A DNA stretch of 64,000 nt from Nitrospirota bacterium (GCA_963741205.1 CAVUHW010000030.1:64001-128000), one strand, 5' to 3'; shown: positions 3,900 to 30,663, counted from the stretch's first letter. The notes: generated by a model from the sequence alone, not told the origin. Numbers and translations are program-made.

Positions 3900-4451
3900 T
3901 TAGTCGGACACAACGGTAAAGTCATCTCTTCTGTTCTTCTGCCAGCAGCTTTCGGTACTCTCGGTACAACTCGACTTTTCCTTTCCGTAGCTGATAAGCA
4001 AAATACGCTGTCCGGAAATGCCCATATCGGTAAGATATCTTTTCGCGTTTGCCGCGCGACGCTGGCCGAGGGTCTGGTTATACTCAATAGTCCCCCGTTC
4101 ATCGCAATTACCCTCGATCCTAACCTTTATTTGCGGGTGAGCCTTGAGCCATTCCGCATTCGCCTTCATGATCTCACCGGCTGCAGCCTCGATAAAAGCC
4201 TGGTTAAAATCAAAATAGACAGGCCGAAGGCCGGCATGAGCGGAGGCTGCCCGCTCCTTGGCTTCTTCAGGCTTTGCTGCTTCCGACTTCTGCTCGGGTT
4301 GAGCCGTCGCTGTTGCAGCGGGCGTCTCTTCCCGTGGTGTTTCAGGTACAGCCGAAATCTCGGCCTTTTTTGGACACCCCCAGAGAGCCAGCATTCCAAT
4401 ACATAATACAAACGTCAAATACCACGCCTTCTTCCTGTTTATCCCGTTCAT
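3900..4451 (-). CDS. pal: peptidoglycan-associated lipoprotein Pal
   Basis: AGGAGG RBS; LWGC lipobox; VYFDFN, IEGNCDERGTIEYN..LGQRRA, ISYGKE, KNRR OmpA-C motifs. Confidence 0.9.
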   Translation of the reverse strand: MNGINRKKAWYLTFVLCIGMLALWGCPKKAEISAVPETPREETPAATATAQPEQKSEAAKPEEAKERAASAHAGLRPVYFDFNQAFIEAAAGEIMKANAEWLKAHPQIKVRIEGNCDERGTIEYNQTLGQRRAANAKRYLTDMGISGQRILLISYGKEKSSCTESTESCWQKNRRDDFTVVSD

Positions 4452-4504
4452 GTCGAATCCTCCTATGATTTTCGATGCATGCAATGCATCTTATTACTGC
4501 TTTT

Positions 4505-4788
4505 AATAATGTCGTCCCTCACGGCGTCGGACTACCCCCAGGCGATCCAGTCCCATCCCCAGCATTTGCGAGAAAGGGAGTTGTCTTTGCTGATTACGGT
4601 CTACGGATTGTCAACTCACCCTTATCCGGCATGGTATGAAGTACGTTCCGCATCTTGCGGTTCACGCTGCGGACTCGGTTCAAATGGAGCCAGCGTTCGA
4701 TCGTAATGGCCATCCCGACCACAAACACGAGGAGGATCGGGTACATGAACAACTCGCCGTCAAGATAATAGTCGGTCATCGTTTTCAA
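4505..4788 (-). pseudogene. decayed N-terminal copy of the ExbB/AglR-like gene
   Basis: GELFMYPILLVFVVGMAITIERW...KGE and, after a stop/frame change, QMLGMGLDRLGVVRRRE align with the N-terminus of 7277..7975; the C-terminal TM channel half is absent. Confidence 0.75.
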
Positions 4789-4884
4789 CCTCCTGAATAT
4801 TTGTTGTATGAATGCTTCGTAATACCTGCAAAAAGGTCCTTTTATCTTTTTCTGGAACCCGACTTCAGCCTTCAGCCTCAGGCA

Positions 4885-6249
4885 CTAGCCTCCGGGCAGG
4901 AAATCAATCGGGTACAGAATCGTGGTCTTGGAAACTTTCTCCTTCGGTCCGAAGTTGAACTTCTTGACACGCTCCACAATCTGGGCCACAAGCTCCGGCG
5001 AGGCCAGATCGCTCGAATTCACCGTACATGCGGAGACTTCGCCACCCGGCTCGATGGATATGCACAGGAGGATCTTGCCGCGCAGGGTCGGGTTCTTGCG
5101 CAGTTCGGCATTGTACATCCGATAGAGCGTCGCCTTGTATTTATCGAAGACGATCTGTATCTCTTCGTCGGTTCGTGACGGCCCGGGTCCGGAACTGAGC
5201 GGCCTCGCCCCTTCAGCCAGCCCCGCAACCGAACTTTCCACCCTGGTAAAGCCCACACCGCCGATACCATTGCCATTGCCGCGGCCGATATTGCGGCTGA
5301 CTGCCGCATTGCTGATACCGCCGCTGGAGCCACCGCCCGTTGACGGCATAGCGACTAATGACCTGCTGGCCCGGGCCTGACCTGCCGACACAGCCGACTG
5401 GTTGCTCAGACGTGCCTCAGCGCCGAGCCGCGCAGCGGGAGTTTCTTCCATCAAATCTTTAAAAGAATCTTTGAAGGCCAGGACCCCCGTGCTCTCCGCT
5501 TTGACGCGCGCAGCCTGTGTTTCTGTAGTGGTTGGCTTGGGTTGCTCCTCCTTCGCTTTCTCCGGCGTCTTTTCCTGATCTTTTTCGGGCTTCTTTTCTT
5601 CTTTGTGGCGTTTAGGCACCGGCTCGGGCTTGGGCCGTTCCTTTCTCAGCATGGAGACCAGGCGTTCCGGAACCACAGCCACGGCCGGGCGGACCGGCGG
5701 CGGCAGTTTCCAAATGAGAACCACACTGCTAAAACAGAAACACCATAATAAAGCGACAAGCAACGCCTTGCGGAAGCGTTTTTCGTTCTCAGCATCCCTG
5801 CTCCAAGGCATGATTACGACACGATAAGGAACGGGCGAAATCTCCCGCTCTATGACGTACTCTTCCTGTCGCCGTTCTTCACGGGCGTAGGCATCACGTA
5901 CTTCTTCGTCGAGGATGTTCAACTCATCGTTACACCGGTTGATCTGCCCCTGGAGAGATGATTGTTTTCCCAGAATCCCGCTGATCTCCCCCTCAAAACG
6001 GGCGAGCCGGCTCCTCGCCCGTTCCAGGTGCCCGGCGACGCTTTGAGCCTCCGCAACTCCTTCCCAAAAGAGTTCATCCGCTTTCAGTTCCCCCAGCTTT
6101 TCGAGCGAATTGCAGGCGTCCCGCAAGGCATCGAACCGCTGTCTATCGGCGGAGAACGTTTCCAGCTCTGCATCTACAGCGCGCAACTCACCTGCCAGCA
6201 CCTGCTGTTTTTGCTGGATTTGCTCGATCTGTGCGTTCAGTTGCGCCAA
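4885..6249 (-). CDS. GltG/AgmX/PglI-like energy transducer: coiled coil - TM - Pro/Lys/Glu linker - Gly-rich - TonB-C-like domain
   Basis: C-terminal RTDEEIQIVFDKYKATLYRMYNAELRKNPTLRGK...I.P.G.V......SS.L..P.L...I...VK.FNFG...YPIDFLP is the AgmX/PglI C-terminal signature; true start probably ~6278. Confidence 0.85.
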   Translation of the reverse strand: MAQLNAQIEQIQQKQQVLAGELRAVDAELETFSADRQRFDALRDACNSLEKLGELKADELFWEGVAEAQSVAGHLERARSRLARFEGEISGILGKQSSLQGQINRCNDELNILDEEVRDAYAREERRQEEYVIEREISPVPYRVVIMPWSRDAENEKRFRKALLVALLWCFCFSSVVLIWKLPPPVRPAVAVVPERLVSMLRKERPKPEPVPKRHKEEKKPEKDQEKTPEKAKEEQPKPTTTETQAARVKAESTGVLAFKDSFKDLMEETPAARLGAEARLSNQSAVSAGQARASRSLVAMPSTGGGSSGGISNAAVSRNIGRGNGNGIGGVGFTRVESSVAGLAEGARPLSSGPGPSRTDEEIQIVFDKYKATLYRMYNAELRKNPTLRGKILLCISIEPGGEVSACTVNSSDLASPELVAQIVERVKKFNFGPKEKVSKTTILYPIDFLPGG

Positions 6250-6287
6250 TTCCTCTGCTAATATGGTTAGTATTCACGGCAACCCCA

Positions 6288-6793: not shown

Positions 6794-7296
6794 GGCGCGT
6801 CTCCTATGGATACCTTTGGAAAGAGAACTATCTTACTGACCTCTGTGCTCCCTTCCGCCCGCACATCGGCTTCACGAACCGCATCCATGACCTGAATCAG
6901 ATAGTCGTATTCGATCTTCGGCTCCAGCAGAATTGTCGCATCTTCCTTCTGCGGATATTGGGCCTTCAGGCGAACGAGCATTTTGGACAGCAGCTCAAGA
7001 TCGTATTTATCATCTTTTTTCGGAATCGCGGCCTCCACGCGTGACCCGTTGGCAATTTCCAGCCCTGCCTTGCGGACAATCACCTCGATGGCGAAATTCG
7101 GCTGGCCGCAGCCGCTCCGCCGGCGCTGGTCGGGACACTCAATTCCATGGATCGTAATGCTCATAAAGACGGCGGTGATGAGCAGAAAGACCACCAGAAC
7201 GGTAAGAATATCCATCATCGGTGTCAGGTTCAAGAGGTGCATGATATCCGTATCGAACTCTTCTTTTTCCCTTCTTTTACGAAATCGTCTCGACAT
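6790..7296 (-). CDS. ExbD/TolR family subunit 1 (AglQ/AglS-like)
   Basis: LNLTPMMDILTVLVVFLL; ..LK..YP....ATILLEP.I.YD.LIQVMDAVR...LFP.VSIG. Confidence 0.88.
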   Translation of the reverse strand: MSRRFRKRREKEEFDTDIMHLLNLTPMMDILTVLVVFLLITAVFMSITIHGIECPDQRRRSGCGQPNFAIEVIVRKAGLEIANGSRVEAAIPKKDDKYDLELLSKMLVRLKAQYPQKEDATILLEPKIEYDYLIQVMDAVREADVRAEGSTEVSKIVLFPKVSIGDAP

Positions 7297-7975
7297 GATC
7301 AGCTCCTGTCAAATTGACGCTTGCTAAAATTGGAGAACTGTCAAATTGGCGCTTGCTGGAACTGGAGATAATATTGAGCGCCTTTACCGATACCATCTCC
7401 AGGCTGTTCACAATCTGACCCGTGGCTGTTGTCAGGCGGGCATGGAATAGGAGAAGCGGGATCGCGGACATCAGACCGAAGGCTGTGCAGTTCATGGCCT
7501 CCGAAATGCTGGCCGCGAGCAGGGCGGCCTTCTCGGCGGGGCTCGCAGTGGCAACGGCGCCGAAGGCCGAGATAAGTCCCATGATGGTGCCGAGCAGTCC
7601 AAACAGGGTGGCGATATTTGAGAGCAGCGCCAGGTACGGCGTGCGCTTTTCCAATTGAGGAATTATCTCCATCATGCTCTCTTCCATGGCGATTTCTATG
7701 TCTTCCCGTCGCCTGACCGCCCCCTGGCGCGCCAGCCCCATCCCCAGCATTTGCGCCAGACTGGATTTGTCCTCGTTGGCTATTTCCCGGGCTTTATCGA
7801 ACTCTCCCTTTTCCAGCACCGGGGACATCGAATCCCACAGGTTTTGGTTTGCGACCCTGATGCGTTTCAATTGAACCCAGCGTTCAAACGCGATGGCCAG
7901 ACCGACCGACAACGTCAGTAGAATCGGAAACATGAAGAACCCACCCCCCTGGAAAAACCTTACTAGTGTATGCAT
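7277..7975 (-). CDS. MotA/TolQ/ExbB proton channel (AglR-like)
   Basis: AGGAGG RBS before MHTLV; GG.FMFPI..IAFER, NIATLFGLLGTIMGLI.AF, ISEAMNCTAFGL. Confidence 0.92.
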   Translation of the reverse strand: MHTLVRFFQGGGFFMFPILLTLSVGLAIAFERWVQLKRIRVANQNLWDSMSPVLEKGEFDKAREIANEDKSSLAQMLGMGLARQGAVRRREDIEIAMEESMMEIIPQLEKRTPYLALLSNIATLFGLLGTIMGLISAFGAVATASPAEKAALLAASISEAMNCTAFGLMSAIPLLLFHARLTTATGQIVNSLEMVSVKALNIISSSSKRQFDSSPILASVNLTGADHVETIS

Positions 7976-8012
7976 CTTTTTTCCTCCTTTTTTCGCTAAC
8001 GAGATAACAAAG

Positions 8013-8303
8013 TTATTTCTTGGTACTGACCTCGAAAAAATCCAATTGCCGCTTAAAAACATCCCGATCCACTGGCACGGCACTATCGGTTAACAGCATG
8101 CTCAAATTTGTCTCCACGCCGATTTCAGAGCGTTTCCAGGGTACGATATACAGGGCTTTCGGGGCTTCATCGTTACCGATGATCGACATGCCCGAAAGTT
8201 CTTTGGCCGCCGGTTCTTTGGCCGCCGGTCCATTGTCCTCGGCCATGGCCGTGCTGAGCAATGCCAGAAGCAGACACAGCCAAAGCAATAGATTCCGATA
8301 CAT
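8013..8303 (-). CDS. small secreted protein, GltF/CglF-like
   Basis: Signal peptide; GMSIIGNDEAPKALYIVPWK...PVDRDVFKRQ; sits between the TPR genes and the ExbB gene, as gltF does in Agl-Glt core clusters. Confidence 0.65.
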   Translation of the reverse strand: MYRNLLLWLCLLLALLSTAMAEDNGPAAKEPAAKELSGMSIIGNDEAPKALYIVPWKRSEIGVETNLSMLLTDSAVPVDRDVFKRQLDFFEVSTKK

Positions 8304-8322
8304 ATTCCCTCCTTCCTTTCAC

Positions 8323-9030
8323 CTAATGTTTGAGCCGTATGTGCAGCTCGGCAATCCATATTTTGGCCTGCGCGTCCCGGGGCATCCCCTCGCTGTAAAT
8401 CTCGAATTGTTTGAGAGCGCATTCCGGGTCGTTGAGATACAGATCACAGAGAATCCCGAGATTTCTATGGACGGGAAGATAGTCCGGGAAACTCGCGAGC
8501 GACTTCTCATAGATCTCCCGGGCTTCTTTAAAGCGGCCGCCCTTGCGAAGCAGCAACCCGTATTCATTACTGGCCACGGGGTGATTGGGAACCAGTTCCA
8601 GAGCGGTTTTGAGGTTCTGCTCGGCCGGCTCCAACTTTCCGGTCCGCATGTAGGCCACTGCAATGTTGATATATGGCGCAGTGACGCCAGGTGACCGCTC
8701 GATCACCTTTGTCAGAAGTTCGATGGCCTTGTCATTTTTCCCGTCGTTCATCATGGCGACGGCGCGCTCGAATTCGCCGCGCGACTCAGCATCCATACCC
8801 GGGTTTTCCCGGATGACGAACCCTTGCCGGCCATCTTCGAGCCGCGCCACGGATGGCCCCTGATCTATAATGGGAACGGGCTGCTGCGTGACTTTGGCGC
8901 TGGTTGCACACCCGGAAACTACCGCGAGTACCATCACCAGCGCCGCCCACCCGGCCCGCCATCGCACTTTCGACCACCAGAACAGCTCTGCATTCTTGAT
9001 CTGCATAGCCCAGCTCCCTATTTCGTTCAC
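8323..9030 (-). CDS. TPR lipoprotein (GltE-like)
   Basis: VSGC lipobox; tandem TPRs; NLGILCDLYLND...AL..F..Y C-terminal motif. Confidence 0.8.
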   Translation of the reverse strand: MNEIGSWAMQIKNAELFWWSKVRWRAGWAALVMVLAVVSGCATSAKVTQQPVPIIDQGPSVARLEDGRQGFVIRENPGMDAESRGEFERAVAMMNDGKNDKAIELLTKVIERSPGVTAPYINIAVAYMRTGKLEPAEQNLKTALELVPNHPVASNEYGLLLRKGGRFKEAREIYEKSLASFPDYLPVHRNLGILCDLYLNDPECALKQFEIYSEGMPRDAQAKIWIAELHIRLKH

Positions 9031-9037
9031 CTGAACC

Positions 9038-12000
9038 TTATTCCACCTTCACATCGGCCGGGGTACCCTTGTCGCCGCTGTCGCCCGCTCCCGGCGCCTG
9101 TTCTTCCGCCTTTGCTGCTTCTTTGGCCTCGGCCTGCTTGGCAGCCTGCATCGGTTCCGCGGCCTTCGCTACTTCTTTGGTCGCGGCCGGTTTGGCAGTG
9201 TGCTTCGGCTTTGCGACCGGCACCGCTTTTTTGGCTGCGGCCGGTTTTACAGCCTGCTTCCGTTTCGCAGTCGACACCGCTTTTTTGGACGCGGCCGGTT
9301 TCGCAGTCTGCTTCGCTTCCGCCGTTGCGTTCACCGCTTCTTTGGTCTCAGCCGGTTTCGCATCCTGTTTCGGTTCCACCACATTCACCGCTTCTTTGGT
9401 CTCGGTCGGGTTCACATCCGGCTTCGGTTCCACCGCGTTCACCACTTCATTGGTCTCTGCCGGCTTCACGTCTTGCTTCGGCTGTGCCGCTTCTGTGGCC
9501 TCGGCCGACGTCGGCCCTTGGGGCGTCTCCGGACGTTCAATGGCGAACAGGTAGCTATCCAACGAAGCGATGACGGGACTTTCCTCTTCCGGCTTGGCGT
9601 AGCGCGCGGGTACGAACATGGCCAGTTTCTCCAAACTCTTGTCGATCCACTCGTTGTAAATACCGACGGTCATCAGTTCAAGATTCTTTTCATGCATTTT
9701 GATGGCTTTATCCTCAAAGGGATAGGCCTGCTCCTCAATGGCAAGGTCATACTCTTCTTGTTCCAATGCGCTCAGTCCTGCGGGGCGTTCGGACTCCTTC
9801 AGGTCCTTGCTGAAGTGGGCATAGATCTCGGCCAGATAAAAGGTCGCCGCTGCCGTGACCTCGCCGACTTCATAATCGAGGAGTTTGTCAAACTGCTGGG
9901 TCGCAACCTTCATCAACTCCTTTTTCTTGCGCAGGTTGGTCTCGAATGGTTGGACCAGCTTGACTTCAGCGAACTGGTCGAAGGTTTGCTCGGCCAGAAC
10001 CATCGCGGCTTTGCCGGCAAGATAGCGGGTCCGTGGCGTACGCTCGCCCCCTGCGCCCGCATCAATGGCCACGATCTGCTTGAGCTCGGCGAGATAGATG
10101 TCTCGATCGTTTTTCTTCTTCAGAGCTTCCGCGATTTTGTTGCGCGTTTCCAGGTTGGTTTCCACCGGATGCGGGAAATATCCGACATAGCGCCGGTAAA
10201 CCTCGAGCGAGCGGTCGCTGTTGCCCGCCTGTTCATGCAGGTCCGCTGCGATCAGCAGTGCCTCCCGCCTTACCTCGTCATCCTGGGACTCTCTTTCTAT
10301 GCGTTCATACTCATTAGCGGCCTGCGTCAGCTGCCCATCCTCTTTATAGACGTAGGCGATCTTCTTGGTCACCTCTGGCTGCAATGCATGTCCGGGGAAC
10401 AGGTCCCGGAAGCCCGCCAGCACGGTGGCCGCCGTCTTCCAGTCCTTAAGCTGCATCAGGGCTGCGGCTGCATCGTACTCCGCGTTCACCCTGATTTTGG
10501 AGGCCGGAGCCATACGCCCCACCCGCAAAAAATGCTCGGCTGCTGCCCGATAATCCTTGCGGGCATTCGCTTGTTCGCCCTGCTTGTAAATCGATGCCGC
10601 AAGATTATCGATCAGAGCATCGCGGCTTTTGTCCCCGGCGGGGAGCAGCGCCAGCACATTCACGTAAGCGGTTTCAGCTTCGTCGTAGCGAGTGAGCTCG
10701 TAGGTTGAGTGGCCGACCACCAGCCAGGCTGCGCGCACGACCTCCACCTCGGCGCCGGGGAATGCCGACAGAAGCTTGCGTGCGGCCGCGACCGCCGGTT
10801 CATAATCCCGCATGTCGTACAGATCATCCGCAGCCGCCCCCAGAACAATCGCCGCCTTCTCATGCTCCGGATAGGTGTCGGCGAACTTCAGCGAGCTGCG
10901 TACGACCTCCCGCTTCACCTGATCTTTTGCCTCGGGCGCAACGCCGGCAAGATGTTGGCGATAGGCGTAAATTGCTGCGTAGCCGGCCTGCGGGGACTTT
11001 TCGTGACGCGGGTATTCATAGGCGGTCTTCTCGTATTCCACCGCCGCCAGATCAAAGGAGCGGTTTTCCAGGAACAGATCCGCCAACAGATAATTAACAG
11101 CCGGCGACTCGGGGTCCATCGGGAAGGAGGTGAGGAATTCCCGGTACCAATGCAGCGCTTCCTCGAAGTTTGCCTTCTTGTCCTTGATCTGCTGCGGACT
11201 CTGGTAAAGCGCATGATAATGTTTGGCCAGATCAGTAAGGTTCGTTTTGAGCCAGGCCAGAACTTCCGGACGGGCGCCGGTTCGAAATGCTGCCAGTATT
11301 CGGCCTTGAGCCCGTAATTGCGGGCAAATTGCTTTTTCGCGTCAATGACCAGGCTGGGGAACGCCCCGGCAAGATGGATTTCGATCACCCGCATGGCGAA
11401 TTGCGGCGATACCTTGTGGAACGGATTGCGGCTGACAAAGGCATTGTAGGTTGCTGCGGCGTCGGCGTAACGGCGCTTATCGAAGTAAAATTCCCCGAGG
11501 TTGCTGTAGACGCCGTCCTCGTAACTGCGCTTGCCGTGGCGGTTGAAGTACTCGACCACGGAGTTGGCGCCGCCGAGGTTGGAAAAACTCAGGCTGATGA
11601 CCCGGAAGGTGTCATCGATGCGCTTTCTTTCCTGCTCGTCCTTGGTCTGCGCGAAATCGTAGCCCATGGACACCTTGTAATCCAGCAGGGCAATGAACCG
11701 GTGCAGGGCCTCGTCATAGAGTTCCTGCTTGTAAAAGGTCCAGCCCAGCTTGTACAGGGCGAGCTGATAATAGGACGAAGAGACGCCCATGGCCACGATG
11801 CTGCCGTAGGCCTCCTCGGCATCCAGGTAATGCCTGCGGGTGAAGAAATATTCGGCGCGCCGGAACTGCACTTCATCCATATACCGGGATTTCGGATAAT
11901 CGCGCACCAGCCGGTTCATGACCCCCATGGCCTCGTCGACCTGCCCCAGTTCCTCATAGGCGCGGGACATCTGATACAGCACCTGATCGTTGCGCTCGTA

Positions 12001-12540
12001 CGCGGGATAATCGTTCAGCAGTTTCTTGTAGAGTTCGATGGCCTCAAGGGCACCGGCCCGCTTCAGGTCATCAGCACCTTCGGCAAGTCCGTCCGCAGCC
12101 GCGGCTGTGCCGGTCGCCGTGCTCTGAGCCGCCCTTTTCTCAAAATCGGCCTGCGCTTCACCCGGCGCTGGTGCAGGAACAGAGGAGCGCAAGGGCGCAA
12201 CCTCCGGACGCGCCGCACGTTCCGGAGAAGGCAAAGTCGCGGCGGAGCCCCTCCGCTCTGCTGCGGTATCGCCGGAAAGAACGCCATATTCCCTTTCGAC
12301 CTTCAGGTCTGCCAGGCGGCGAATAGCCTCCGGCTTCAGGGCCGCGTCCGGCGTTTCTTCCAGAAAGCGCCGGTAACCCTCCATGGCTTTCTCGAGTCCG
12401 CCTTCGATCTTCTCTTCCTTGATTTCGATCTGCATGGTTCGCAACGTGGCAATCGTATCCTTGCCGCCGACCGACTGACAGGCGCAGAGGAGCAGCGGCA
12501 GCGCGAGCACGCTCCATCGAAGACAATTCATTGTCCTCAT
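9038..12540 (-). CDS. large TPR lipoprotein (~1,170 aa, GltD/AgmU-like) with repetitive C-terminal tail; frameshift near 11270
   Basis: LCAC lipobox; ORFs 10915..12540 and 9038..11119 join; many TPRs; ERPAGLS.LE.EEY...IEEQAYPFEDKAI..HE.N.......YNEWI.KS...LA...PARY.K motif. Confidence 0.82.
9105..9490 (-). repeat. about 7 degenerate 54-bp (18-aa) tandem repeats, consensus ~EPKQ.AKPAETKEAV...
   Basis: QPKQDVKPAETNEVVNAV/EPKPDVNPTETKEAVNVV/EPKQDAKPAETKEAVNATA/EAKQTAKPAASKKAVSTA/KRKQAVKPAAAKKAVPVA/KPKHTAKPAATKEVAKAA/EPMQAAKQAEAKEAAKAE. Confidence 0.8.
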
Positions 12541-14435: not shown

Positions 14436-14952
14436 CTACCTGTCATGAAGGGTAATGCTTTGGGCGGCCAGAGATATTTCCACGATCTTGGGGCCCACAT
14501 CCTTGTTGACCTTGAAGCTCTCCGATTTTTGGAAATCGGTGCCTCCCCCGGTTTTCCCGATGACAACAGACCTGGAGATCATGCTCGCCGGACCGGACAT
14601 TGCCGGTATAGATGCGCTGCACCCCCCCCTTCTGCAAGGCTTCGAGTTCCTTGAAGGAGTAAAGGTGATGGGCAACCGGCTTGCCGTCCAACTGGATCTC
14701 GACCGAGTCGAGACGGAAGGTTTCGCCGCTGACCAGTGATACGAATACCGCGACCTGCGTATTGGACGGATACAGCAGCTTCTCTTCAAGCTGATTCAGT
14801 TCCGCCGCAATGCCCAGAACATCGCTCTTGATTTCCTGAACCTGCTCATCCAGGCCCTTGATCTGTTCCCGGGAGATTTCCTCCGCATAGGCAGGGAAGC
14901 CCAGCATCAGCACGGCAATGGACAGGATGAACCCTCGTAATATGTGGAACAT
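14436..14952 (-). CDS. secreted protein of unknown function (short coiled coil + beta-sandwich); frameshift near the 3' end
   Basis: Signal peptide ending AYA; LDEQVQEIKSDVL....EL..LEEKLLYPSNTQVAVFVSL...LDSV...LDG..VA.HLY...EL.AL..GGVQR.Y.GN. Confidence 0.75.
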
Positions 14953-20161: not shown

Positions 20162-23100
20162 TTATTGCCCGTTGTTCTCCACCGAACTTCTCGCGGGAGG
20201 TCCACCACGCCGCCAGAAGATTTCGGTCTCGATCGTCAATTCGTAGCTTCCTTGCTCCCATCGATCCGTGATTTCACGCTTGAGCGCCTCGGTGCGCGCC
20301 TTCACAACTGCCTGATCCTCCACATCCGCGAGGTACGAGATACGGAGAATGGCCGGCGCTTTGCGCAATTCGCCGAGCAGCATCTCGATTCTCGGTTTCC
20401 ATTGCGGCCGCATCTCGGTGGATCCCGGCTCGAACACGCCATCCGCGATGTCCAGGCTCACGACGCGGTGCAGCGTCGCGCCGAAGTTGAACTTTATCGC
20501 CTTACCTCGGGTCAGGCGCTGCACGAGCGGGTTCTGGGTGGTGACGCGATAACCCGTCGGCAGCGTGCGGTCATCGAGTTTCAAGATGAAGTTGCTGCCC
20601 CGATCCTCGTTGGGGACCGCGGCGCAAGTGATGTGGAAACGACCGTCCTTGTCCGTCGTCACAATGAGACCCCGCGCGCTCACGATCCGCACCCCGCCCA
20701 GGCCTTTTTCTCCCTCATCGGGGTAGCCGTTGGCGTTGGCATCATCGAACACCTTTCCGATGATGTCCGTACAATCGAAGGTGGGATCGGGAACGATGCG
20801 CACTCTCGCCGTCGCCACGGTGGTCATGGCTTCACCCGTAGTGCTGCTAAGTACCTGCGCGCTGTTGTCGTAGTTACCTTCCTTAACGCCCGCGCCCACG
20901 ATGAGCAGCAGCTTGATTGTGTGATCGCCGTCCGTGAGCTGGAGATTGTCCCAGCGCAGGTCGCTCGTGGTTTTCACGGGCTCGAGCCGGTTGCCGTCGA
21001 ATCGGGCGGAACCGTCGACATATTTGAATCCGGGCGGGAAGCGATCCACGATGGTGAGATTCGACAGAGTCGCGCCCAGTGTGTTCTTGACCGTGATCGT
21101 GTACGGCACCATCTGCCCACGCGAAACATTGAGTAGCAACGCCGTCTTCGTGATCGTGACTCCGGTGTTCAACGGGGGGTCTACGGCAATGTGATTATTG
21201 AAGAGCTCGATACCGCCTGCGGCGGAGTTGCTCAGCATGAAGTGCAGGTAGTACTTCGTGCCCACCGAATTCGCCGGGACGCTCGGCGCGGGGGCGAACT
21301 CGGACGGCTGCGCTTCGCAGTAAGATGTCGTCGCCGGAATGGCATCGTCAGCGGTGCCGGGGCATCCCGGGACTGAAAACGGCGGTGTAGGATCGGTTGG
21401 TGCAATAATGCCAGAAGGCGTGGGGCGGTACCCATTCGGCGGCGTGACGCGAATGACGTAGTCGGCCCCCGCCGGGCAGGATGGGTCGCTGAAGTTCAGA
21501 TCGAACTTGTAGTAGCCCGGCGCGAGCGTCACCTGGTTCTGCTGCGCCGGATCATTAAAGCAGCTCGCCGGAAGCGCACTGTTCGTCGATGCCCGCACCA
21601 TGGTTACGGTGGCGCCGGCAATCGGGGTGCGCCGGACCGAATCGTAAATAACGCCGCTAGGATCGATCGGCAGATTCAGATTCTGGAGATTACGGCCCGA
21701 AACCGCCGTGATACCGGAGATCCGTTGCAAGCCATTGGTGAATGCCGAGTCGGCGAGACCCAAGAGCGCCGTGCTCGTGGTAGCGCCGGGCGCACTGAAT
21801 CGGATTTCGTACTGATCGGCGGCGGTCATCGTGGGTGCGAGGCCTCTAAAACCGTACGCGCCGTCGGTGTCAGTAGGCATGCTCGCCAGCAGCTGGCTGT
21901 TCCGGTAGACCTGAACAGTCCAGCCGGCCAATTCCCTTTCATTGCTTTCACACGTTTTGTTGAAGTTCGCGTCGTGCCAGACACTGCCGTTCAGCATTAC
22001 GCTGCCGGGCGTGCCGCCGATATCCACGGAAGCGTTACTCGAGGCGTTCTGGTTGGGTGTGTTCCACGTGACTTGCGCCGTATTGGTCAGCGTCGTACCG
22101 ATCGTTCCCGACACGAGCTTGGCGTGGAATCGCAAGATCGCGGTTCCATTCGCGGGCAGGCTTCCATAGACCGACGAGTAATCCGCTATGATTACTGAAC
22201 CTGCGACAGTGATCCCGGCGCCCGAACTATTCAGCACCGCTGATCCCGGCACATAAGAGAGTTGGCCAGGCAGGGCATCGGTGATCACCACGTTGGTCGC
22301 CGGCACCGTGCCGATATTGGTCACGCGCACTGACATATTCGAGCTCGGCGCCGACTACGGCGGTTCCGCCACCAACGACTGCGACTTGCTTCGTGATCGT
22401 GAGCTGTTGCGCGTTACCTACCGCGATAACGGTCGGCTGGTAACCGTTGGTCGCGTTGCCATCCGAGTCAGTCAAAAGCGTCGGCAACTGCGTGGTCGAC
22501 GCACTGCCTTGGTTGCTGATGATCGTTCCGGAGGGCACGCCCGCGTTGACCTGTAGTCTGAAGGTCACGATGCCCGTGCCGCCTGTCGCCAGGGTGCCAC
22601 CGACCGACGGGGACGGCGGCGGGGTTTGGTCGGAGGAAACGACGCCGATGCCGCCTATGAGGGGCGATACGCCGGCGCCGGGATCTCCCACTGTCCGGCC
22701 GTTCATCACCAGCGAATTGGCCACATAGGTGGTATTGGCAGGAACGGCGTCCGCGAGCACCACGCCCGTCGCCGGAGTTGCCCCCGAGTTGGTCACGATG
22801 ATGGTGTACTGGAGCACATCGCCCGGATCGACGAGTCCATTATTATTGTTGTCCACGGCGAGCTGGACGGTCTTCAGCGCGTAGACCAATGGCAAGTTAC
22901 CCACAACGACCCTGGTCGGATCGTTCAGTACAGGGGTCGCTGGATTGTCGGAGGGTTGTTCGGGGAACGGTACCACTGCCTGCGCCGGAACCGTTTACAA
23001 AGCCCTGGTTGGAGATGATGGTGCCGTTAACGACGTTGGTGCTGATGCGCACGTCAAACGTGACCGTGGCCACATTTGTCGTAGCCGCGCTCGCGTCCGC

Positions 23101-26100
23101 GCGCATGGCACCCGCCGCCGTGTCAACGGGCGAGTTGATCGACATGCCGTTTTGCAGCGCGCTGACACCGGCCGGTATCCGCCACGGCCAGCGCCATTCA
23201 GCTTGGTGCTGTTGGCCACGTAGCTCGTGTTAGCCGGGATCTGATCGCGCAACGTCACGCCCGCTGCATTCTCGTTGCCGATGTTCTTCACCGTGATGGT
23301 GTAGCGCAAGGTATCGCCAGCCATGATGGTTGAGGTACCGGACGTAATGTCTTGCGCCGTTTTCAGCACACGGAAGACCGGCGCCGACGTGATGATCGTG
23401 CGGGTCGGATCGCTGGTTCCGGGTGAGGGACGGATCATCGCTCAACTGTGTCGGCAATGTGGACGAGCCGATCTGCGCCTGGTTCAGCACTGCGGAGCCG
23501 CTGGTGATCACCGGCACGAGCGTGGCCTGGAACTCAATGACCAGCTTGTCGTTGCCGCCGCCCTGCGGGTCGATACTCAGGTTGCTGATACTCACCAGAC
23601 CCGTGCCCTTGGTCCCGCCGGTCGCCGAGGTCAGTGTGGTGTTCGCGCCTGCCGGAACGGTGACGAGCGTCAGGCTGCCGGGCACGAACATGGCGGTCGT
23701 ATTCAGCTTGTCCAGCTCGTCCGTCAGCGAGAAGTTCGTCGCGCCCACCGTGCCGCTGTTCTGGATCGTCAAGGTGTACTTCAGCGTGTCGCCGGGTTTG
23801 GCGTTGGCGCCGGGCTGGCCGGTGGTCGCGTCATAGAGTACGGTCTTGGTGAAGGTCAGCACCGGCAACTTCGTGATAATGCTGGCAGATATCGGGCCGA
23901 GGAAATAGTCATTGACCGCCGGTGTGCCACTGCCCGTGCGTTCATCGTTGTTGACCCCATTCTGGCCGGTCCACTGGGCCGAGGTGCTGGCCGCGAGTGT
24001 CTGTCCGGACTGTACGTTGATCAGGACCTTCGCATCGTAAGTAGACAGTGACCGTTGTCCCCTCTCAGGAATATCTATGTTGGAGCCGGCCGATCCCCAG
24101 CTGAGTGACTGCGGAGTGGTAATACCATCGCCCGTAATGATCGGCGCCGAGATGGTATTGCCGGCGCCGGTGACGGTGACGTTACCGTTATAGGCAAGGC
24201 CAAGCGAGAGCGCTTCGGCAATGCTCAGATCAAATGCGCTGGAGTAGCTGTCGGTAGCTGGGTCCGCCCGCTGCTTGAAACACGAGCGTATAGCGCAGGA
24301 TGTCGCCGACGGTTGGTGCAACGCCGGGATTTGTCTGGTTACTCACGCTCTTGGTGAGCGTCACAACCGGCTCGATGATTCGCAGCGGCTGGGCAGTGGT
24401 GCCGGTGCCGCCATTCTTCTTCGCGCCGCCCGCGGTGTCGGCGTACGTGTAGGAGGCACTATTTTGGAAACTCACCCCGGCATTCGCCGCGCTGTTATTG
24501 GCGACGCGGGCATGCACTTCGATGATCGCCTGCTTACCTGCCGGGATCTGCGCCAGGGTGAGATTCACCTGGCCGGGTGCAACGCTGCTGTCGCTCAGGG
24601 TGAAATTATTGCCGCTCACATCAGTCGCGCTGACATACACCAGCGAGCTGTTGAGAGTATCGGTCACCGTCACGTCATAAAGCGCGGCATTAATTATCGT
24701 CGTTGGCACCGTAATGCGATAGACCACTGCATCGCCGATCGTCGCTTCACCGCTCGCTGGTGAGATAGAGCGTCTTGGACGGCTGGGAAATGGTGGCGCT
24801 GTTGGTCATCGTGAAGATGGCCGGACCAAGCGCTCCATACTTTTGTCCCGACTGCAGCGGCAGTGACCAGTACTCGGCGAGAGTGACGCTGTTATTCCAG
24901 GTCTGGTTGGAGCCGAAGTCGGTATAGAAACCGATATTGTAATCGATGGTGACGCATTGACCCGGATTGACCGGCGTACTCAGCACAAAGGTCATCGTGC
25001 CGCCGCGCACTGCAGGCGGTGTATAGGTGTAATCGGTCCCGGCAGTGAGGAGCGTACCGCCGACACTCACGGCGGGCGGGGTGATGGTTGTTTGGTTCAA
25101 CTGGCTCGCCAGCAGGTCGGTGAACTTGACGCTGTAAGCCGGCGCGGTTCCGTTATTGCACGACCCCAGGCGGAACTGCATAGTATCAGTAGTGACATTG
25201 ACCTGTAACGGACTGGCGCGAAGGGCACGATCGATCTTCGTCGGCGTGCTCATGATCGGCTGCCAGCACCGTGATGTTGGCGCTGCTGCTAAGGAGAGCG
25301 CTGCCGGTGTAAGCAAGCTTGACGGTGTTGCCCAGATTCGTGGCGGGCTGCTGTGTCAGCGTGTTCGTAACCACGCGTGCGCGGTATTGGATGACGAAGG
25401 TGTTGTTGGCGGAGTTGTTGTCGATGGCGTTGGTGATGTTGCCAAAGTTCCAGATAACGGTATTGCCGCTGACCGTAGGTGCAGTGAAATCGGTATAGGT
25501 AAACGGCGCGGTCTGGCTGAACGGCGCGGAGGTGTCGCCATTGATGCTGACAACGCTGTCGAAGGCAAGGCCCGCGGGTAGCGTATCGGTGACCACTACA
25601 TTCTGGAGCTGCCCTTCGCGCAGGGTCAGAGCGAGACGGTAAACGACAGTGTCGCCGACGCGCAGAATCGAGTCGGTGCCGGTGCTGGGTGCAGTAGTCC
25701 AGGAATCGGAGACCACCGATTTGGCAATGGTGGTGGGATCGAACGTGGGGACCGTGGCAGAGGCCGGGCCGTAGCAATAGTTGTTTGGCGAGGTAATGGT
25801 CGGGCAACCGGCGCCGGTGCGCTCTCCGCTCTGCGCGTCCTGCAGCGAGGTCCAATCCACATAGACGCTGTTGTTGATCGGCAAGCCGTTGACCGACACC
25901 ACCGTCACGCGATAGGTCAGCACGAGCGACTGGCCAGCGGGGATGTCGAGCGTGCCGTCATTGTTCTGGCGGCCCCAAGCCAGGGCGCCGCTGGGCAGTG
26001 TGGTTGGATTCGCTACAAAACCAGTGACCGGAACGCCGTTGATCTGCGCTGTGGCGGAACCGGGGACCAGCGATACGTTCACCGGCAGCGTGTCGACGAC

Positions 26101-28629
26101 ATTGGTATCAAACGCGGTGGAGCTACCACTATTGGGAATGGTGATCACATATTGGAGGACGTCACCTTGCGCGGCAGGATCGGTTGCCTGCTTGCCGGCC
26201 GAGACGTTGCTGACCGTCTTGGTGCCGCCGTTACTGCGGCTCGACCACCGTCATGGTGGAGGCGACACCTGCGCCGCCGGTCGCTTGCGTCGAGCTATTG
26301 CCGTTTACCTTGTCGTAGGTGTACGACGCGCTGTTTGTGAACGACACGCCACTGTGGTTGGTGGTGGTGTTCTGCAAGGCTACCGTAACCCTGATGACCG
26401 CCTGGCCGCCCGCGGGGATATCGATACCGGTGTTCAGTGTCTTGTAGAATGAGATTGGTGGCAGTGCCGGTATTGCTCAGGTTCCACGTGCCGCCGGATA
26501 CGACCTGTGCGCTCACAAAGCTCACGTTGGCCGGGAGATTGTCCAGGATCTTCACATCGTACAAGGGCACATTGACCGGGGTCTGCGGGCACCGTGATGA
26601 GGTAACTGAACTGCTGGCCGATCGTCGCAGTGCTCTGGGTATTCGTCTTCGACAGCGCTCCGGGCGCCTGGATCGTCACCGTGGTGGGATCCGCGTCGTA
26701 CCGAGCAGTGCCGGGCCGTTGACGTACGGGTCATCACTGACGCCGGACACGCTGCCGCTCGAGTGGTGCCGGAGATACTCGCCTGATTGGTGGCGATAGC
26801 GCCGTTCGTGAGGGGGTGCCGAGGCCAGGGTGACATCGAACTGGATCTGGTACTGCGGTGTTGGAAGCGCAGATTCAGACTGGTGATCGTAATGAGAGCC
26901 TGTGCCATTCGTGCCGCCAGTGGGAGTGACAGTAACTGTGGCGGTCGGAGGGAAGGTACTACTGCCGCAACGAGAGAGACGAGCCCGGGACGAAGGCCGC
27001 CGACGTGTTCAGGCCCAGGTCGTCGGTTATCGTAATGTTATTGAGCGGGGGGATGTTAAAGTTCTGGAGCTGCAGCGTGTAGCGCAGCCTGTCACCCGGA
27101 AAGGCCGCGGTGGCCGGGTTAGCGCCGGTGGTCAGGTCCTGGACCGACTTCAGAAAGTAATAGCCCGCCACCGTAGCCGTAACGGTGTAGGCGTCCTGGA
27201 AATCCAATACGCCCGGCGTGCCGTCGGTGATGCGTCCTGTCGTATTCGCGACGGCCGGTATAGCTGCTGTGCGGCACTGAACCACTTGGTAGCGCCGGCA
27301 ACGTTGGTAAGCGTGTCCGGACGAGATACCGGCGTCGAGCATGGCCTGGTAGTTGATGATCAAGCGCTGATTGGGCCCGATCTTGGCTGCGGCCGTAAGC
27401 ATGGTCAGGCTGAGCTGGCACGCAGACGCGGTACCGCCGTTCCAGGTGACCGAGAAGTCGGTGCCATTGACCAGCGGACCTGAGACCGGGGTGACGCCAT
27501 CCGCCGCAAAGATCTGAGCGGTGACCGTGGCCCTGGGATCGTAGGTGCACATGCCGGCGGGAAGATTGTCGGTGATCGTGGCGTTCCACGCATCGCTGCC
27601 GCCGATATTCTGGACGTTGATGGTGTAGGGCGCCTTGGTCCCCACATTCAGGTTAGACATCGAGCTCGTCTTTGTGACCGCGAGATTGGGCTCGGCGATG
27701 GCCATCGGCGACGAAATGCCCGACTGGCCCGGGAGGGGGACATAGTACCCCGTCGATAAGCCTCCCGAACTACCACGGGGCGGTGTTGATGAACGCCTTC
27801 CAACCGCGTTTGTCGGTGTGTTATCGAGGACGACCGTGATCTCGATCACGATCTGCGATCCGGCCGGGATGATGCGGGAAGTTAGCTGAAGGTCGAGGTG
27901 CTTCGTTGTCACCGATTGGTGAATGTACGCGGCACTGGAGGTGCCGCTGCCCTTCAGTAGGCGACTGATAGCTCACAAAGGTGAGATCCGCACCCGTCGC
28001 GGTGAGATTGTCCGTGACACGTGATGATGTCGCAAGTAGTTGGGCGATCCGACTGTTGTTGATGACGGTGCCCGTGGCCGGGTCATACATGACCGGGATC
28101 GTGAGCGTGTACGTGAAGGGCACGCCGATGGCTGGCCGTGGCTGCGGGGGACTGCTTGTGCGATGGTCTCTACGGGTATGAAAAGACCCTGACAGCTGTT
28201 ATTGGGGGCATATATCGCGCCGGGGTTAACAAACCAGATCTTGGTGGTAGTAGTGGCGCACGCCATATTACCGCTGTAGTAAATATTATTAAAAATCGCC
28301 AAGAACCCATCAGATTTAAAATTGAGGGTGGAAGTCAGCCCCTGCGGCCATTTGGCAGATATCGGAAAGTTCTCGAACGTACAATTAGCATCGATCCCGA
28401 TCGAGGAAGGAAGAGTAAAAGGAGTAAGAGTGGGATCATTACCGTCGATTATGTGGGAACCATTCACGAGGGGGTAGCCACTGCACAAATCCGTCCCCGC
28501 CTGCGCGGAGTAAGCCGCGCCCAGCACCAGGGCGAGGAGGAGCAGCAGCGGGAAACCGAGCCTGGAGCCGCGTGCCGTCAGGGCCGTAAGGAAACTTACC
28601 AACTTCCAGGCTTTTGGGTTCGAACACAT
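20162..28629 (-). CDS. giant secreted adhesin-like protein (~2,820 aa): Cys-containing N-domain, ~14 DUF11/isopeptide-type Ig repeats, two SdrD-B-like domains, degenerate OmpA-like tail; many frameshifts
   Basis: AAAGGAGG RBS, ATG 28629, signal peptide ending AQA; recurring ..K(T/S).......GD.L.YT....N.G...A......D.LP pattern across successive ORF fragments; G.VWHDAN.N and GKVFDDANANG..D.GE.G SdrD-B motifs. Confidence 0.8.
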
Positions 28630-28677
28630 CCGGAGCTTTTCCTCCTTTCTCATGGGCTGTAGCATAGCAACGTGCGG

Positions 28678-28850: not shown

Positions 28851-28869
28851 CTCCTGTCCTCAGCAAGGT

Positions 28870-28995
28870 CCTGCTGCCTGCACTGCTGTGATCGGGACAA
28901 GTCCACGATGGGATAACGCTAGCAGAGACCGATCACTCCTGTCTCGGCTTTTTATGACGCGCTCTCGGCTTTTTATGCTTTTTTGATAAAAAAAA
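28870..28995 (-). promoter_or_regulatory. repeat copy 2 of the AraC-type tandem-site promoter
   Basis: TCTCGGCTTTTTATG at 28942-28956 and 28963-28977; flanks nearly identical to copy 1. Confidence 0.7.
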
Positions 28996-29640
28996 TTACT
29001 TTCGGGCCAGGCTTCTGTAAGCGGAAGGCGTCTGGCCGGTCAGCTTCTTGAAGATTCGGCCGAAACCGGTTGCATCGGCAAAACCCAGGGAGACGGCGAT
29101 TTCGGTTATACTCTGGGGGCTGCTGCAGAGAAGGTTCTTTGCCTTCGTGATTCTGCGGCTGTTGAGATACTCCTGATAGGACAAGCCCATCACCTTTCTG
29201 AATATTCTCGAAAAGTGGGATGGGGACATGCCGGCCTCCTTGGCAACGGCGTCGAGACGGATATCGTTCCGGTAGTTATTATTGATATAACGAGCGGCCT
29301 GCTGGATCTTGTGATACTGGCTGAGGGTGACGGTGGAAGGCGGCATTCCCGGCTGGACCGACGTCTCGGACCCGGGAAGGATGTTCTTTCTGAAGGGCTG
29401 CTTAAGGTAATTGCGAGCGCCGTTCCTGATTGCCTCGACCGCCGCCTCCTCGTCGCCGTGTGCCGTGACGACGAGAACGAGAACGGAGTGCGCAACGTCC
29501 TTACTTTCTTTCATGATGCAATATCCTCGATTTATATCATGACATCGACGCCGACATGTCGGGCAGCCGGAATGCTATGACCGCGAGATCAATGTCGCAG
29601 CGCATGCTTCACCTGTTCGATCGCACGGACAACTTGCCGT
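28996..29640 (-). pseudogene. partially deleted duplicate of the AraC response regulator (HTH intact, ORF 28996..29514)
   Basis: Highly similar to 29782..30663; receiver N-half decayed (AIEQVK..CDIDLAVIAFRLPDMS remnant at 29540-29630); internal in-frame deletion of SISELSTKIDFYLALRHADKQR. Confidence 0.75.
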
Positions 29641-29657
29641 GACGAATCGGCAGGGTA

Positions 29658-29781
29658 CTGCTGCCTGCACTACCGTCATCGGGAAAGTCCGCAATGGGGT
29701 AACGCTAACAGAGATCGATTGTTCCTGTCTCGGCTTTTTATGACAGGCTCTCGGCTTTTTATGCTTTTTTGATAAAAGAAA
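29658..29781 (-). promoter_or_regulatory. repeat copy 3 of the AraC-type tandem-site promoter
   Basis: TCTCGGCTTTTTATG at 29728-29742 and 29749-29763; TGtTAGCGT element conserved. Confidence 0.7.
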
Positions 29782-30663
29782 TCACTTTCGGGGCAGGCTT
29801 CTGTAGGCGGAAGGCGTCTGGCTGGTCAGCTTCTTGAAGATTCGGCCGAAGCCGGTTGGGTCGGCAAAACCGAGGGAGACGGCGATTTCGGTTACGCTCT
29901 GGGCGCTGGTGCGGAGAAGGTTCTTTGCCTTCGTGATTCTTCGGCTGTTGAGATAATCCTGATAGGACAAGCCCATCACCTTCTTGAATATTCTGGAAAA
30001 GTGGGCCGGGGACATTCTGGCCTCCCAGGCGACGGCGTCGTGGCTGATATCGGTTCGGTAGTTGTCGTTGATAAAACGAACGGCCTGCTGGATCTTATGG
30101 TACTGGCTGAGCGTGACGGCGGCATGTGGCATTCCCGGCTTGGCCGGCGTCTCGGACCCGGGAAGGATGTTCTTTCTGCGCTGTTTATCCGCGTGCCTGA
30201 GGGCGAGATAGAAGTCGATCTTCGTGGAAAGCTCGGATATGCTGAAGGGTTTCTTGAGGTAATCGCGGGCGCCGCTTCTAAATGCCTCGACCGCCACCTC
30301 CTCGTCGCCGTAAGCCGTGGCGATAAGAACGAGAACGGAGGGCTCGACGTCCTTGATCTCTTTCATGACGTCGATACCGGACATGTCTGGCAGTCGGTAT
30401 TCAATGACTGCGAGATCGATGTCGCTGCGCCGCTTCACCCGCTCGATCGCAGCCCCGCCGGTCTGGGTCGTAACGACTCGATAGGCGTCGGAAAGACTCT
30501 CGACATACCGATCGAGGAGAGTAGTATCTTCGTCAACGATCAATATCTGAGAAGGTACGGTGTTTTCCACGGCGGGCGGATGTGCCTTGTTTCCACCCTT
30601 CCGACGATGCTTCGTGTCAGGGTTTCCCGATGGTTTGTCAATCCTTTTTGTCATACAGCCCAC
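29782..30663 (-). CDS. AraC-family response regulator (YesN-like) with atypical receiver domain
   Basis: ILIVDED...DLAVIEYRLPDMSG...ATAYG...GARDYLKKPF receiver; AraC HTH MSPAHFSRIFKK...AKNLL....SVTEIA..LGF.D...F.R.FKK....TPSAYR. Confidence 0.9.
   Translation of the reverse strand: MGCMTKRIDKPSGNPDTKHRRKGGNKAHPPAVENTVPSQILIVDEDTTLLDRYVESLSDAYRVVTTQTGGAAIERVKRRSDIDLAVIEYRLPDMSGIDVMKEIKDVEPSVLVLIATAYGDEEVAVEAFRSGARDYLKKPFSISELSTKIDFYLALRHADKQRRKNILPGSETPAKPGMPHAAVTLSQYHKIQQAVRFINDNYRTDISHDAVAWEARMSPAHFSRIFKKVMGLSYQDYLNSRRITKAKNLLRTSAQSVTEIAVSLGFADPTGFGRIFKKLTSQTPSAYRSLPRK

Follow-up and report, generated by a model that had tools for sequence, protein, structure and literature searches.

What does the core ancestral to the gliding and spore-coat machines of Myxococcus do in non-gliding bacteria? 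The question is raised by a gene cluster of a Nitrospirota bacterium (GCA_963741205.1), located on the minus strand at positions 3900-30663 of a stretch of 64,000 nt (CAVUHW010000030.1:64001-128000), hereafter called the window. The cluster combines a core resembling the Agl-Glt machinery of Myxococcus (i.e. ExbB/ExbD-type motor subunits, a TonB-like transducer, and tetratricopeptide repeat (TPR) proteins) with genes for a giant adhesin and its outer-membrane barrel anchor. The adhesin-anchor pair and the core are genuinely linked across genomes, and the two modules very probably work together.

Organization of the gene cluster

The host genome is a metagenome-assembled genome (MAG) of 50 contigs and 84% completeness. 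Domains were called with Pfam and NCBIfam models, and intact homologues from a related locus (L003) were also scored. The conserved unit consists of 11 genes, encoding the DUF11 adhesin, the barrel anchor, two small secreted proteins, three TPR proteins, one ExbB-type and two ExbD-type proteins, and a GltG-type transducer. Their positions in the window are as follows.

20162..28665, minus strand: adhesin with DUF11 and isopeptide domains, ~2,834 codons in 11 open reading frame (ORF) pieces; matches to DUF11, SdrD_B, GramPos_pilinBB, TIGR01451, and TIGR04226
14985..20123, minus strand: outer-membrane anchor with OmpA-like domains and a C-terminal large beta-barrel, 1,713 codons, three frame breaks; OmpA matches
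14436..14952, minus strand: small secreted protein of ~171 amino acids (aa), first gene of the core block, one frame break; motif conservation
12537..14432, minus strand: periplasmic TPR protein, ~630 aa, GltC-sized, three frame breaks; TPR matches
9038..12540, minus strand: large TPR lipoprotein, ~1,050-1,170 aa, GltD-sized, one frame break; TPR matches
8323..9030, minus strand: small TPR lipoprotein, about 225-235 aa; Pfam TPR families, lipobox read by eye
8013..8303, minus strand: small secreted protein, 96 aa; translation, with the motif ELSGMSI(V/I)GNDEAPK
7277..7975, minus strand: ExbB/TolQ/AglR-type proton-channel subunit, 232 aa; Pfam MotA_ExbB, 87 bits
6790..7296, minus strand: ExbD/TolR-type subunit 1, 168 aa; Pfam ExbD, 56 bits
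6291..6793, minus strand: ExbD/TolR-type subunit 2, ~166 aa, two frame breaks; Pfam ExbD, 29.3 bits on the first 90 aa
4885..6249, minus strand: GltG-type bitopic TonB-like transducer; NF033768, 59.6 bits (cut-off 40)

The genes and the order given in an earlier note on this DNA, all on the minus strand, were borne out by translations and by Pfam and NCBIfam matches, and so were its junctions at 12537/12540, 6790/6793, and 14432/14436. The note had also described the anchor as a triple-OmpA protein. OmpA domains are indeed present, with two stretches scored by Pfam and three by one NCBIfam OmpA-type model.

Linkage of the adhesin-anchor pair and the core

A scan with the barrel part of the anchor returned 42 loci from Nitrospirota MAGs, Desulfatitalea, Desulfuromusa, and many Gammaproteobacteria. 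Carriers include cultured isolates (i.e. Pseudomaricurvus hydrocarbonicus JCM 30134, Pseudomaricurvus sp. HS19, Halioxenophilus sp. WMMB6, and Cellvibrionaceae) and a Thiotrichales MAG. The adhesin C-terminus was found directly before the anchor gene in 36/36 loci reaching upstream; the other six of the 42 end inside the anchor gene. In Nitrospirota and Desulfobacterota, the core, beginning with the 171-aa gene, follows the barrel in 15/15 loci running past it. In Gammaproteobacteria, the whole core is located upstream of the adhesin and none after the barrel (L035, L037, and L040; 5/5 genomes fetched; G351 and G166). The internal order of the core is unchanged there (small171, TPR629, TPR1048, TPR225, small106, ExbB, ExbD, ExbD, GltG-like). 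The adhesin-barrel pair and the core thus lie side by side in all three groups (i.e. Nitrospirota, Desulfobacterota, and Gammaproteobacteria), with two gene orders between them.

As a marker for co-occurrence, the 629-aa TPR protein (TPR629) was used, and family tables were compared by eye. The gammaproteobacterial family examined was that of Pseudomaricurvus sp. HS19, with 277 genomes. Its TPR629 matches fell into three tiers: identity was ≥65% in eight genomes, 47-52% in a further 58, and 23-32% in most of the rest. The barrel (≥56% identity) was present in exactly the 66 genomes with a close TPR629 and in 0/211 others; wherever both were on one contig, they were on the same strand, 20-27 kb apart. 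In the window's order (64 genomes), a close barrel was detected in 23 genomes and TPR629 lay beside it in 23/23. TPR629 was present in 28/64 genomes of this order, and in three genomes the barrel homologues were all more distant ones. Ten further barrel-bearing gammaproteobacterial genomes were searched; a close TPR629 was detected in eight, in four of them on another short contig. One of the eight is G350, for which the contig assignment is provisional. A survey of gene neighbourhoods, which the earlier note had proposed, therefore finds pair and core linked, both by adjacency in three phyla and by co-occurrence (66/66 and 23/23 genomes).

The barrel proteins of Nitrospirota and Gammaproteobacteria share 53-67% identity, which indicates that the cluster has moved between phyla. 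Such a transfer would also suit two independent modules without functional coupling, whose linkage came about by hitch-hiking on a mobile island, as would the finding of each module alone. We regard this explanation as highly unlikely. The linkage outlives a rearrangement in which the core as a whole changed sides, from behind the barrel to ahead of the adhesin, and co-occurrence of the close subfamilies is complete in both groups of genomes. Beyond the barrel, no other conserved flanking gene was detected in 16 gammaproteobacterial loci, save a pyruvate kinase gene in four related loci, and no mobility genes were seen in the scanned flanks of the window.

In another of these eight genomes, an Acidiferrobacterales MAG (G349), TPR629 is located at C14:8336-10141 (minus strand), possibly on the opposite strand and a few kb upstream of the adhesin. 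This may be a third arrangement, provided that C14 is the contig of L020.

The adhesin and its anchor

In relatives, the adhesin is encoded by one ORF of >2,500 aa and the anchor by one ORF of ~1,700 aa, the latter in 20+ genomes. Inspection of the translation by eye shows a signal peptide at the N-terminus of the adhesin, whose last 200 aa share 52-91% identity across phyla. This C-terminal part is predicted to form an SdrD-B-like beta-sandwich followed by a small alpha/beta domain (predicted local distance difference test score, pLDDT, 85.5). Foldseek matches of the C-terminus were dominated by the SdrD-B/CnaB-type sandwich, and no assignment was obtained for the terminal alpha/beta domain.

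The anchor comprises a signal peptide, a conserved N-terminal peptide, OmpA-like peptidoglycan-binding domains, and the C-terminal barrel. The conserved peptide (G-E-x-(V/T)-E-x-x-L-P-x-D...W) is carried by the mature N-terminus, ahead of the first OmpA-like domain; at the other end, the protein terminates in ...VVGQF, with an aromatic final residue. AlphaFold2 modelling of the C-terminal 958 aa (37 sequences) predicted residues ~415-956 to be all-beta, with ~29 strands mostly at pLDDT 70-90. Queried with this model, Foldseek returned large outer-membrane barrels alone (SlpA, LptD, TonB-dependent transporters, and MtrB), at low TM-scores of 0.17-0.25. The barrel part matched no Pfam or NCBIfam family, and a profile search by sequence found no relative in the PDB; in a protein atlas, its neighbours were clusters called 'outer membrane protein' or 'OmpA family protein'. 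A further branch of the barrel family is represented by distant homologues, 27-28% identical across all 958 aa, in frames of ~2,025 aa (G304:C9:269160-271916 and G325:C47:43541-46282).

In some genomes, adhesin and anchor are fused. Two near-complete genomes of the window's genus, G315 (100% complete, 2 contigs) and G320, carry them as a single frame of 4,425 and 4,549 aa, respectively, with one N-terminal signal peptide, downstream of a regulator gene and upstream of the core. Altogether, open frames of 4,291-4,655 aa were found in G311, G315, G319, and G320, and one of 3,186 aa in G323. At the junction in L011 and L012, the conserved C-terminus of the adhesin passes through a short linker into the conserved N-terminal peptide of the anchor, and the signal peptide of the anchor is gone. 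With the passenger first and the barrel last, the layout of the fused protein looks like that of an autotransporter. Because such fusions exist and because each module occurs alone, the barrel is probably sufficient for handling the adhesin.

The pair resembles type V secretion in that a Sec-dependent adhesin has a dedicated adjacent barrel, fused to it in some genomes. It differs from type V secretion in several respects: (i) the barrel matches no autotransporter or Omp85/POTRA family; (ii) ~29 strands are predicted in the last 540 aa, albeit in a model of moderate confidence, as opposed to barrels of 12 or 16 strands; (iii) OmpA-like domains are located between passenger and barrel; and (iv) the pair is linked to a proton motor. 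Nor does the barrel match the Plug or TonB_dep_Rec families of TonB-dependent transporters.

The core and its relation to Glt proteins

In the published description, the core consists of AglRQS with GltD, GltE, GltG, and GltC plus one extra gene, and GltF belongs to a group found only in Myxococcales and Bdellovibrionales, outside the core (PMC3169522). The earlier note had counted TPR proteins, GltF, GltG, and AglR/Q/S as the published core; AglRQS, GltG, and the three Glt TPR proteins agree with that source, whereas GltF does not. Since 2011, this seven-gene core has been described in many gammaproteobacteria as stand-alone and of unknown function (PMC3169522, PMC3858216), and possibly as a basal transport machinery (PMC3858216). 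The core reported here is a single block with two extra small genes, in keeping with the description of the core complex in PMC3169522.

Both ExbD-type proteins retain the aspartate of the membrane helix (LNLTPMMDIL in subunit 1 and INLIPMMDVL in subunit 2), so that a working proton motor is to be expected. The remainder of subunit 2 was recovered in two other frames by comparison with its L003 homologue, and relatives have an intact ExbB-ExbD-ExbD trio.

The transducer is composed of a cytoplasmic coiled coil, one membrane helix, a Pro/Lys/Glu-rich linker, and an AgmX/PglI domain resembling the TonB C-terminal domain. The model for this last domain (NF033768) was matched above its cut-off of 40 bits by both the window protein and the L003 homologue (66.1 bits), which supports the Agl-Glt reading of the earlier note for the TonB-like protein. 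Matches to the GltG model NF033760 (E 3e-11 and 8.4e-8) fell far short of the equivalog level (42.6 bits vs. a cut-off of 650), and those to the GltJ model (E 3.7e-6 and 5.5e-9; 26.3-35.7 bits vs. a cut-off of 450) reflect the shared C-terminal domain alone. No FHA domain was matched, the N-terminus being a coiled coil. Judged from these sequence comparisons, GltG-type membership of the TonB-like protein is supported.

The ~630-aa TPR protein corresponds to a single 629-aa ORF in relatives. In the large TPR protein, Cys21 after the signal peptide is invariant (8/8 sequences). A profile of the large TPR protein, run against metagenomic proteins, returned 4,445 matches at E ≤ 1e-5 among 8,000 scored; the 120 relatives listed are all close and have generic names. 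The small TPR lipoprotein matched the GltE model NF033758 weakly (E 2.9e-5, 23.2 bits, cut-off 225), with a score no better than those for other TPR families. In size, the three TPR proteins match GltC, GltD, and GltE, and two of them are lipoproteins; their putative kinship with these Glt proteins is read from architecture and from the literature.

Of the two small secreted proteins, the one of ~171 aa occurs in all core copies examined and carries the motif SxEQIKGLDEQVQEIK; it matches no Pfam or NCBIfam family, and the protein atlas gives 'hypothetical protein' clusters alone. The 96-aa protein has homologues in the cores examined save L050 (G004 C8), where none matched, and its L003 homologue gave no family match.

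In common with Agl-Glt and Agl-Nfs of M. xanthus, the core has one TolQ/ExbB-type and two TolR/ExbD-type subunits, a bitopic TonB-like protein with an AgmX/PglI domain, and three TPR proteins of similar sizes, including two lipoproteins (PMC3169522, PMC11761067). As in the published cores, the genes form one cluster with extra small genes that are absent from Myxococcales (PMC3169522), and on the output side the system has, like Agl-Glt, an outer-membrane barrel and an adhesin. The differences lie in the coiled coil, which replaces the FHA domain of GltG, and in the outer-membrane module, which here consists of a 1,700-aa protein with OmpA domains and a large barrel, and the ~2,800-aa DUF11 adhesin. 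CglB was not found: its model NF033757 had no match at E ≤ 10 in the host genome, itself 84% complete, in line with the earlier statement that CglB is not recognizable here. The model NF033759 (i.e. TraA) likewise had no match in this genome. GltA/B/H/K, GltF, and GltI were not identifiable with the model library used, which contains none for them.

Could the core instead be a paralogue of Tol-Pal, which tethers the outer membrane to peptidoglycan and positions OmpA-type anchors, with the adhesin as a mere passenger? The parts are alike in kind: a TolQ/TolR-like motor, a TolA/TonB-like transducer, and OmpA-type peptidoglycan binders, including the OmpA-like domains of the anchor itself. The best models for the ExbB and ExbD proteins are TolQ and TolR; the intact L003 homologue of the large TPR protein passes the YbgF/CpoB model TIGR02795 (116.7 bits vs. 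a cut-off of 90.1); and a Pal-like lipoprotein gene is adjacent in the window, in G006, and in G009. The scores for TolQ (70.2 bits vs. 221) and TolR (38.8 bits vs. 127.3) are, however, far below the equivalog cut-offs, and no TolB-type domain was found by Pfam among the proteins of the locus. Two distinct ExbD-type subunits are present, unlike in Tol-Pal, and the patchy distribution of the accessory core (TPR629 in fewer than half of the genomes of the order) is unlike that of a housekeeping system. Moreover, G007 and G008 have no adjacent Pal, and in the gammaproteobacterial gene order it is the adhesin, not Pal, that comes after the GltG-like gene. Taken together, a Tol-Pal-like role appears distinctly doubtful. 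Scores on the TonB-ExbBD models are below the cut-offs as well (ExbB, 45.5 bits vs. 206.2; TonB C-terminal model, 17-22.5 bits vs. 27.1), and the conserved histidine in the membrane helix of TonB-type transducers (PMC12204202) was not seen among 12 aligned sequences of the transducer.

Paralogous cores with the same internal order and no adhesin or barrel were observed at L050 (G004:C8) and L052/L053 (G005:C1). One of them follows the type II secretion genes GspJ, K, L, and N together with ApbE; the other is located between c-type cytochrome/propeller genes and two PilY1-like genes plus PilW on the opposite strand.

A proposed mechanism and its alternatives

We propose that the cluster encodes two separable modules of one trans-envelope machine, which would be inherited and transferred together. 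In the first module, the Sec-exported giant adhesin and its dedicated ~1,700-aa anchor would form an autotransporter-like export and anchoring unit. The C-terminal ~200 aa of the adhesin would stay at or below the outer membrane beside the anchor, whose OmpA-like domains would hold peptidoglycan in the periplasm while the very large barrel sits in the outer membrane. The second module would be a Glt/Tol-type transducer of the proton motive force, with an ExbB-type pentamer, two types of ExbD subunit, a GltG-type protein predicted to reach across the periplasm, three TPR proteins, and two small secreted proteins. The core may dock on the periplasmic arm of the anchor (i.e. the conserved N-terminal peptide and the OmpA-like domains). 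This arm, the natural candidate for a docking site, sets core-linked anchors apart from their core-less paralogues, which lack all or part of it: the OmpA arm is either absent or reduced to a single OmpA-like stretch.

The putative chain would run from the motor to the GltG-like protein, the large and small TPR lipoproteins, the 629-aa TPR protein, and finally the anchor arm. For comparison, the M. xanthus model has a GltG-GltD-GltE-GltC chain, in which GltD is wrapped by GltG and contacted by GltE, and the outer-membrane barrels have their periplasmic N-termini held by GltC (PMC11761067). Proton flow would thus be used for mechanical work on the anchored adhesin, and the most likely output is control of adhesin exposure, tension, release from peptidoglycan, or lateral displacement. 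While cooperation of the modules is very probable, the full explanation, in which two co-inherited modules include a motor working mechanically on the adhesin-anchor unit, has about an even chance of being correct. Complex prediction with three chains (the 629-aa TPR protein, the C-terminal 130 aa of the GltG-type protein, and the N-terminal 88-aa peptide of the anchor) scored 0.00 in both runs, which were made without controls, and weighs neither way.

Several observations weigh against this explanation. First, the modules occur apart. Among genomes of the window's order, 5/28 with TPR629 had no barrel match; the core of G299 is complete, yet the 11 kb upstream of it contain nothing adhesin-like; and 163 further genomes of the gammaproteobacterial family have distant cores (TPR629 at 23-32% identity) without this barrel. 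Conversely, the one-contig genome G338 encodes a DUF11 protein of 2,582 aa and an anchor of 1,424 aa containing a single OmpA-like stretch, and this complete genome had no TPR629 match at E ≤ 1e-20. G339 has adhesin and barrel with no core found nearby. In G200 and G277, a DUF11 protein is followed by a barrel protein of 1,192-1,255 aa without an adjacent core; these barrel proteins match residues 624-1709 of the anchor alone, i.e. they are without the OmpA arm. The remaining two of the ten further barrel-bearing gammaproteobacterial genomes, MAGs of 2.4-2.7 Mb (G347 and G353), gave no TPR629 match at E ≤ 1e-30. Second, with the Glt models, the three TPR proteins gave one weak, non-specific match to GltE and none for the two large proteins. 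Third, the barrel model is only moderately confident (mean pLDDT 60, predicted template modelling score 0.41), with the first ~415 residues unresolved, and both the surface exposure of the adhesin and its threading topology are what we infer. Finally, no RNA run was found among the public runs searched with the window.

The same modules could be coupled differently, the proton motor being required for passage of the giant adhesin through the barrel to the far side of the outer membrane, just as type IX secretion requires GldLM. An export energizer of this kind would be equally compatible with the linkage across three phyla and in all 66 and 23 genomes, and with the very large size of the adhesin; we know of no other energy source at the outer membrane. 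We nevertheless consider it unlikely. Related adhesin-barrel pairs are found without an adjacent core, including that of G338 without any TPR629 match, the fusions are laid out as self-exporting autotransporters, and what distinguishes core-linked anchors is the periplasmic peptidoglycan-binding arm and not the barrel. A motor that powers translocation of the adhesin is less likely than one controlling it, because related barrels manage adhesins without a core. The proposal of the earlier note that the motor powers secretion through the barrel is accordingly weakened by the core-less pairs and the self-contained fusions.

Giant repetitive adhesins are served by proton-driven 5:2-type motors in two further systems, i.e. 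SiiAB with SiiE in SPI4 type I secretion of Salmonella, and GldLM with SprB and the type IX secretion system of Bacteroidota (in part PMC12204202). Neither an ABC transporter or TolC-type component nor type IX components (GldLM/PorLM motor, SprA/Sov translocon, or CTD signal on the cargo) are present here, and the route would be Sec plus a private barrel. Type IX models gave weak, partial matches to TPR or OmpA parts alone (PorW, 33.5-50.7 bits vs. 250; PorE, 54.6 bits vs. 600).

A bolder version of mechanical work on the adhesin is a surface-translocation machine outside Myxococcota, in which Agl-like motors drag or ratchet peptidoglycan-docked adhesin-anchor units for gliding, winching, or force-dependent attachment in Nitrospirota, Desulfobacterota, and Gammaproteobacteria. 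Gliding of unknown mechanism has been reported for some Pseudomonadota (PMC13104615). If true, this would be the ancestral job of the Glt core; we think it rather improbable.

Novelty and significance

In the literature searched, no paper was found that links DUF11 or OmpA-barrel proteins to the Glt core, and none that describes this barrel family; the genomic-context supplements of PMC3169522 (Figure S1 and Tables S2/S3) were outside the search and may already show neighbouring genes. The motor (Tol/Exb/Agl-type), the transducer (Glt-type), and the adhesin unit (type V-like) each belong to a known kind; their combination and the barrel are new. In at least three phyla, one clade of Glt-type cores is tied to a definite output: a giant adhesin whose anchor is its own and resembles an autotransporter. 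This offers a testable clue to what the core does in non-gliding bacteria, and its presence in cultured, non-pathogenic marine isolates turns that question into a bench experiment. Members of the outer-membrane barrel family, for which the barrel part has no Pfam or NCBIfam match and sequence searches find no relative of known structure, can occur in fusion with their adhesins. The large TPR protein has thousands of metagenomic relatives, and those listed all bear generic names.

Frame breaks in the window

The cluster copy in the window is not open; at least 20 frame breaks were counted in 26.8 kb. In relatives, the corresponding genes are single open frames. An 8.2-kb part was compared with contigs of relatives from four public sediment runs, and at every break site within it (13423, 14369, 14379, 14567, 17890, 19663, and 19800) these contigs have one base fewer. 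None of the public sequencing runs contains the window itself or as much as half of its words: the best word share was 0.22, and the shares of 0.17-0.22 stem from relatives. The host rpoC gene (G000:C13:85702-89702) is also split, in three frames, whereas rpoB next to it is intact. Frame errors in this assembly are thus genome-wide yet uneven.

Since the genes of relatives are intact, single extra bases account for 7/7 sites, and rpoC is also split, the breaks most likely arose as errors in the assembly consensus and not through decay. The number of breaks might by itself point to a decaying pseudogene cluster. Besides the extra bases and rpoC, this reading is opposed by the lack of in-frame stops or deletions among what was seen, and by the 73-90% identity to L003 that the pieces of the non-adhesin genes keep; we judge decay to be very improbable.

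Accessory and neighbouring genes

Further features of the window are given below.

29782..30663, minus strand: regulator with receiver and AraC-type helix-turn-helix (HTH) domain, 293 aa; Pfam Response_reg 80.2 bits, HTH_18 83.6 bits
28996..29514, minus strand: shorter regulator paralogue, 172 aa; HTH_18 93.1 bits, Response_reg 21.6 bits (partial receiver)
4518..4788, minus strand: fragment like the ExbB N-terminus, in two frames; tblastn with L003 ExbB, residues 2-59 (36% identity) and 75-92
3900..4484, minus strand: Pal-like OmpA lipoprotein; TIGR02802, 126.1 bits (cut-off 125.35)
3194..3829, minus strand: TIR-domain protein directly downstream of the cluster; Pfam TIR_2, 47.7 bits

The flanks, with CHRD, LysR, and Tex genes upstream and the TIR gene downstream, are unrelated to the cluster. 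Pal had previously been listed as a member of the locus. It is present in the window, but its adjacency is not constant: of five genomes checked, a Pal-like gene adjoins the GltG-like gene in G006 and G009 and does not in G007 and G008, and G010 has a weak OmpA protein 2.5 kb away. The Pal-like lipoprotein is an accessory, outside the conserved set of genes. G006, the closest relative, has Pal ~165 bp past the GltG-like gene, without the ExbB-like fragment seen at 4518-4788 in the window. Matches to the MotA/ExbB family in the 84%-complete host genome numbered two in all, the ExbB of the cluster and one on contig C28.

A full regulator gene upstream of the adhesin was also observed in G006, G010, G315, and G320, and not in Desulfuromusa G009. 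The shorter paralogue, with most of the receiver missing, follows the full copy in the window, G006, and G010; its conservation in three or more genomes rules out an artefact of assembly.

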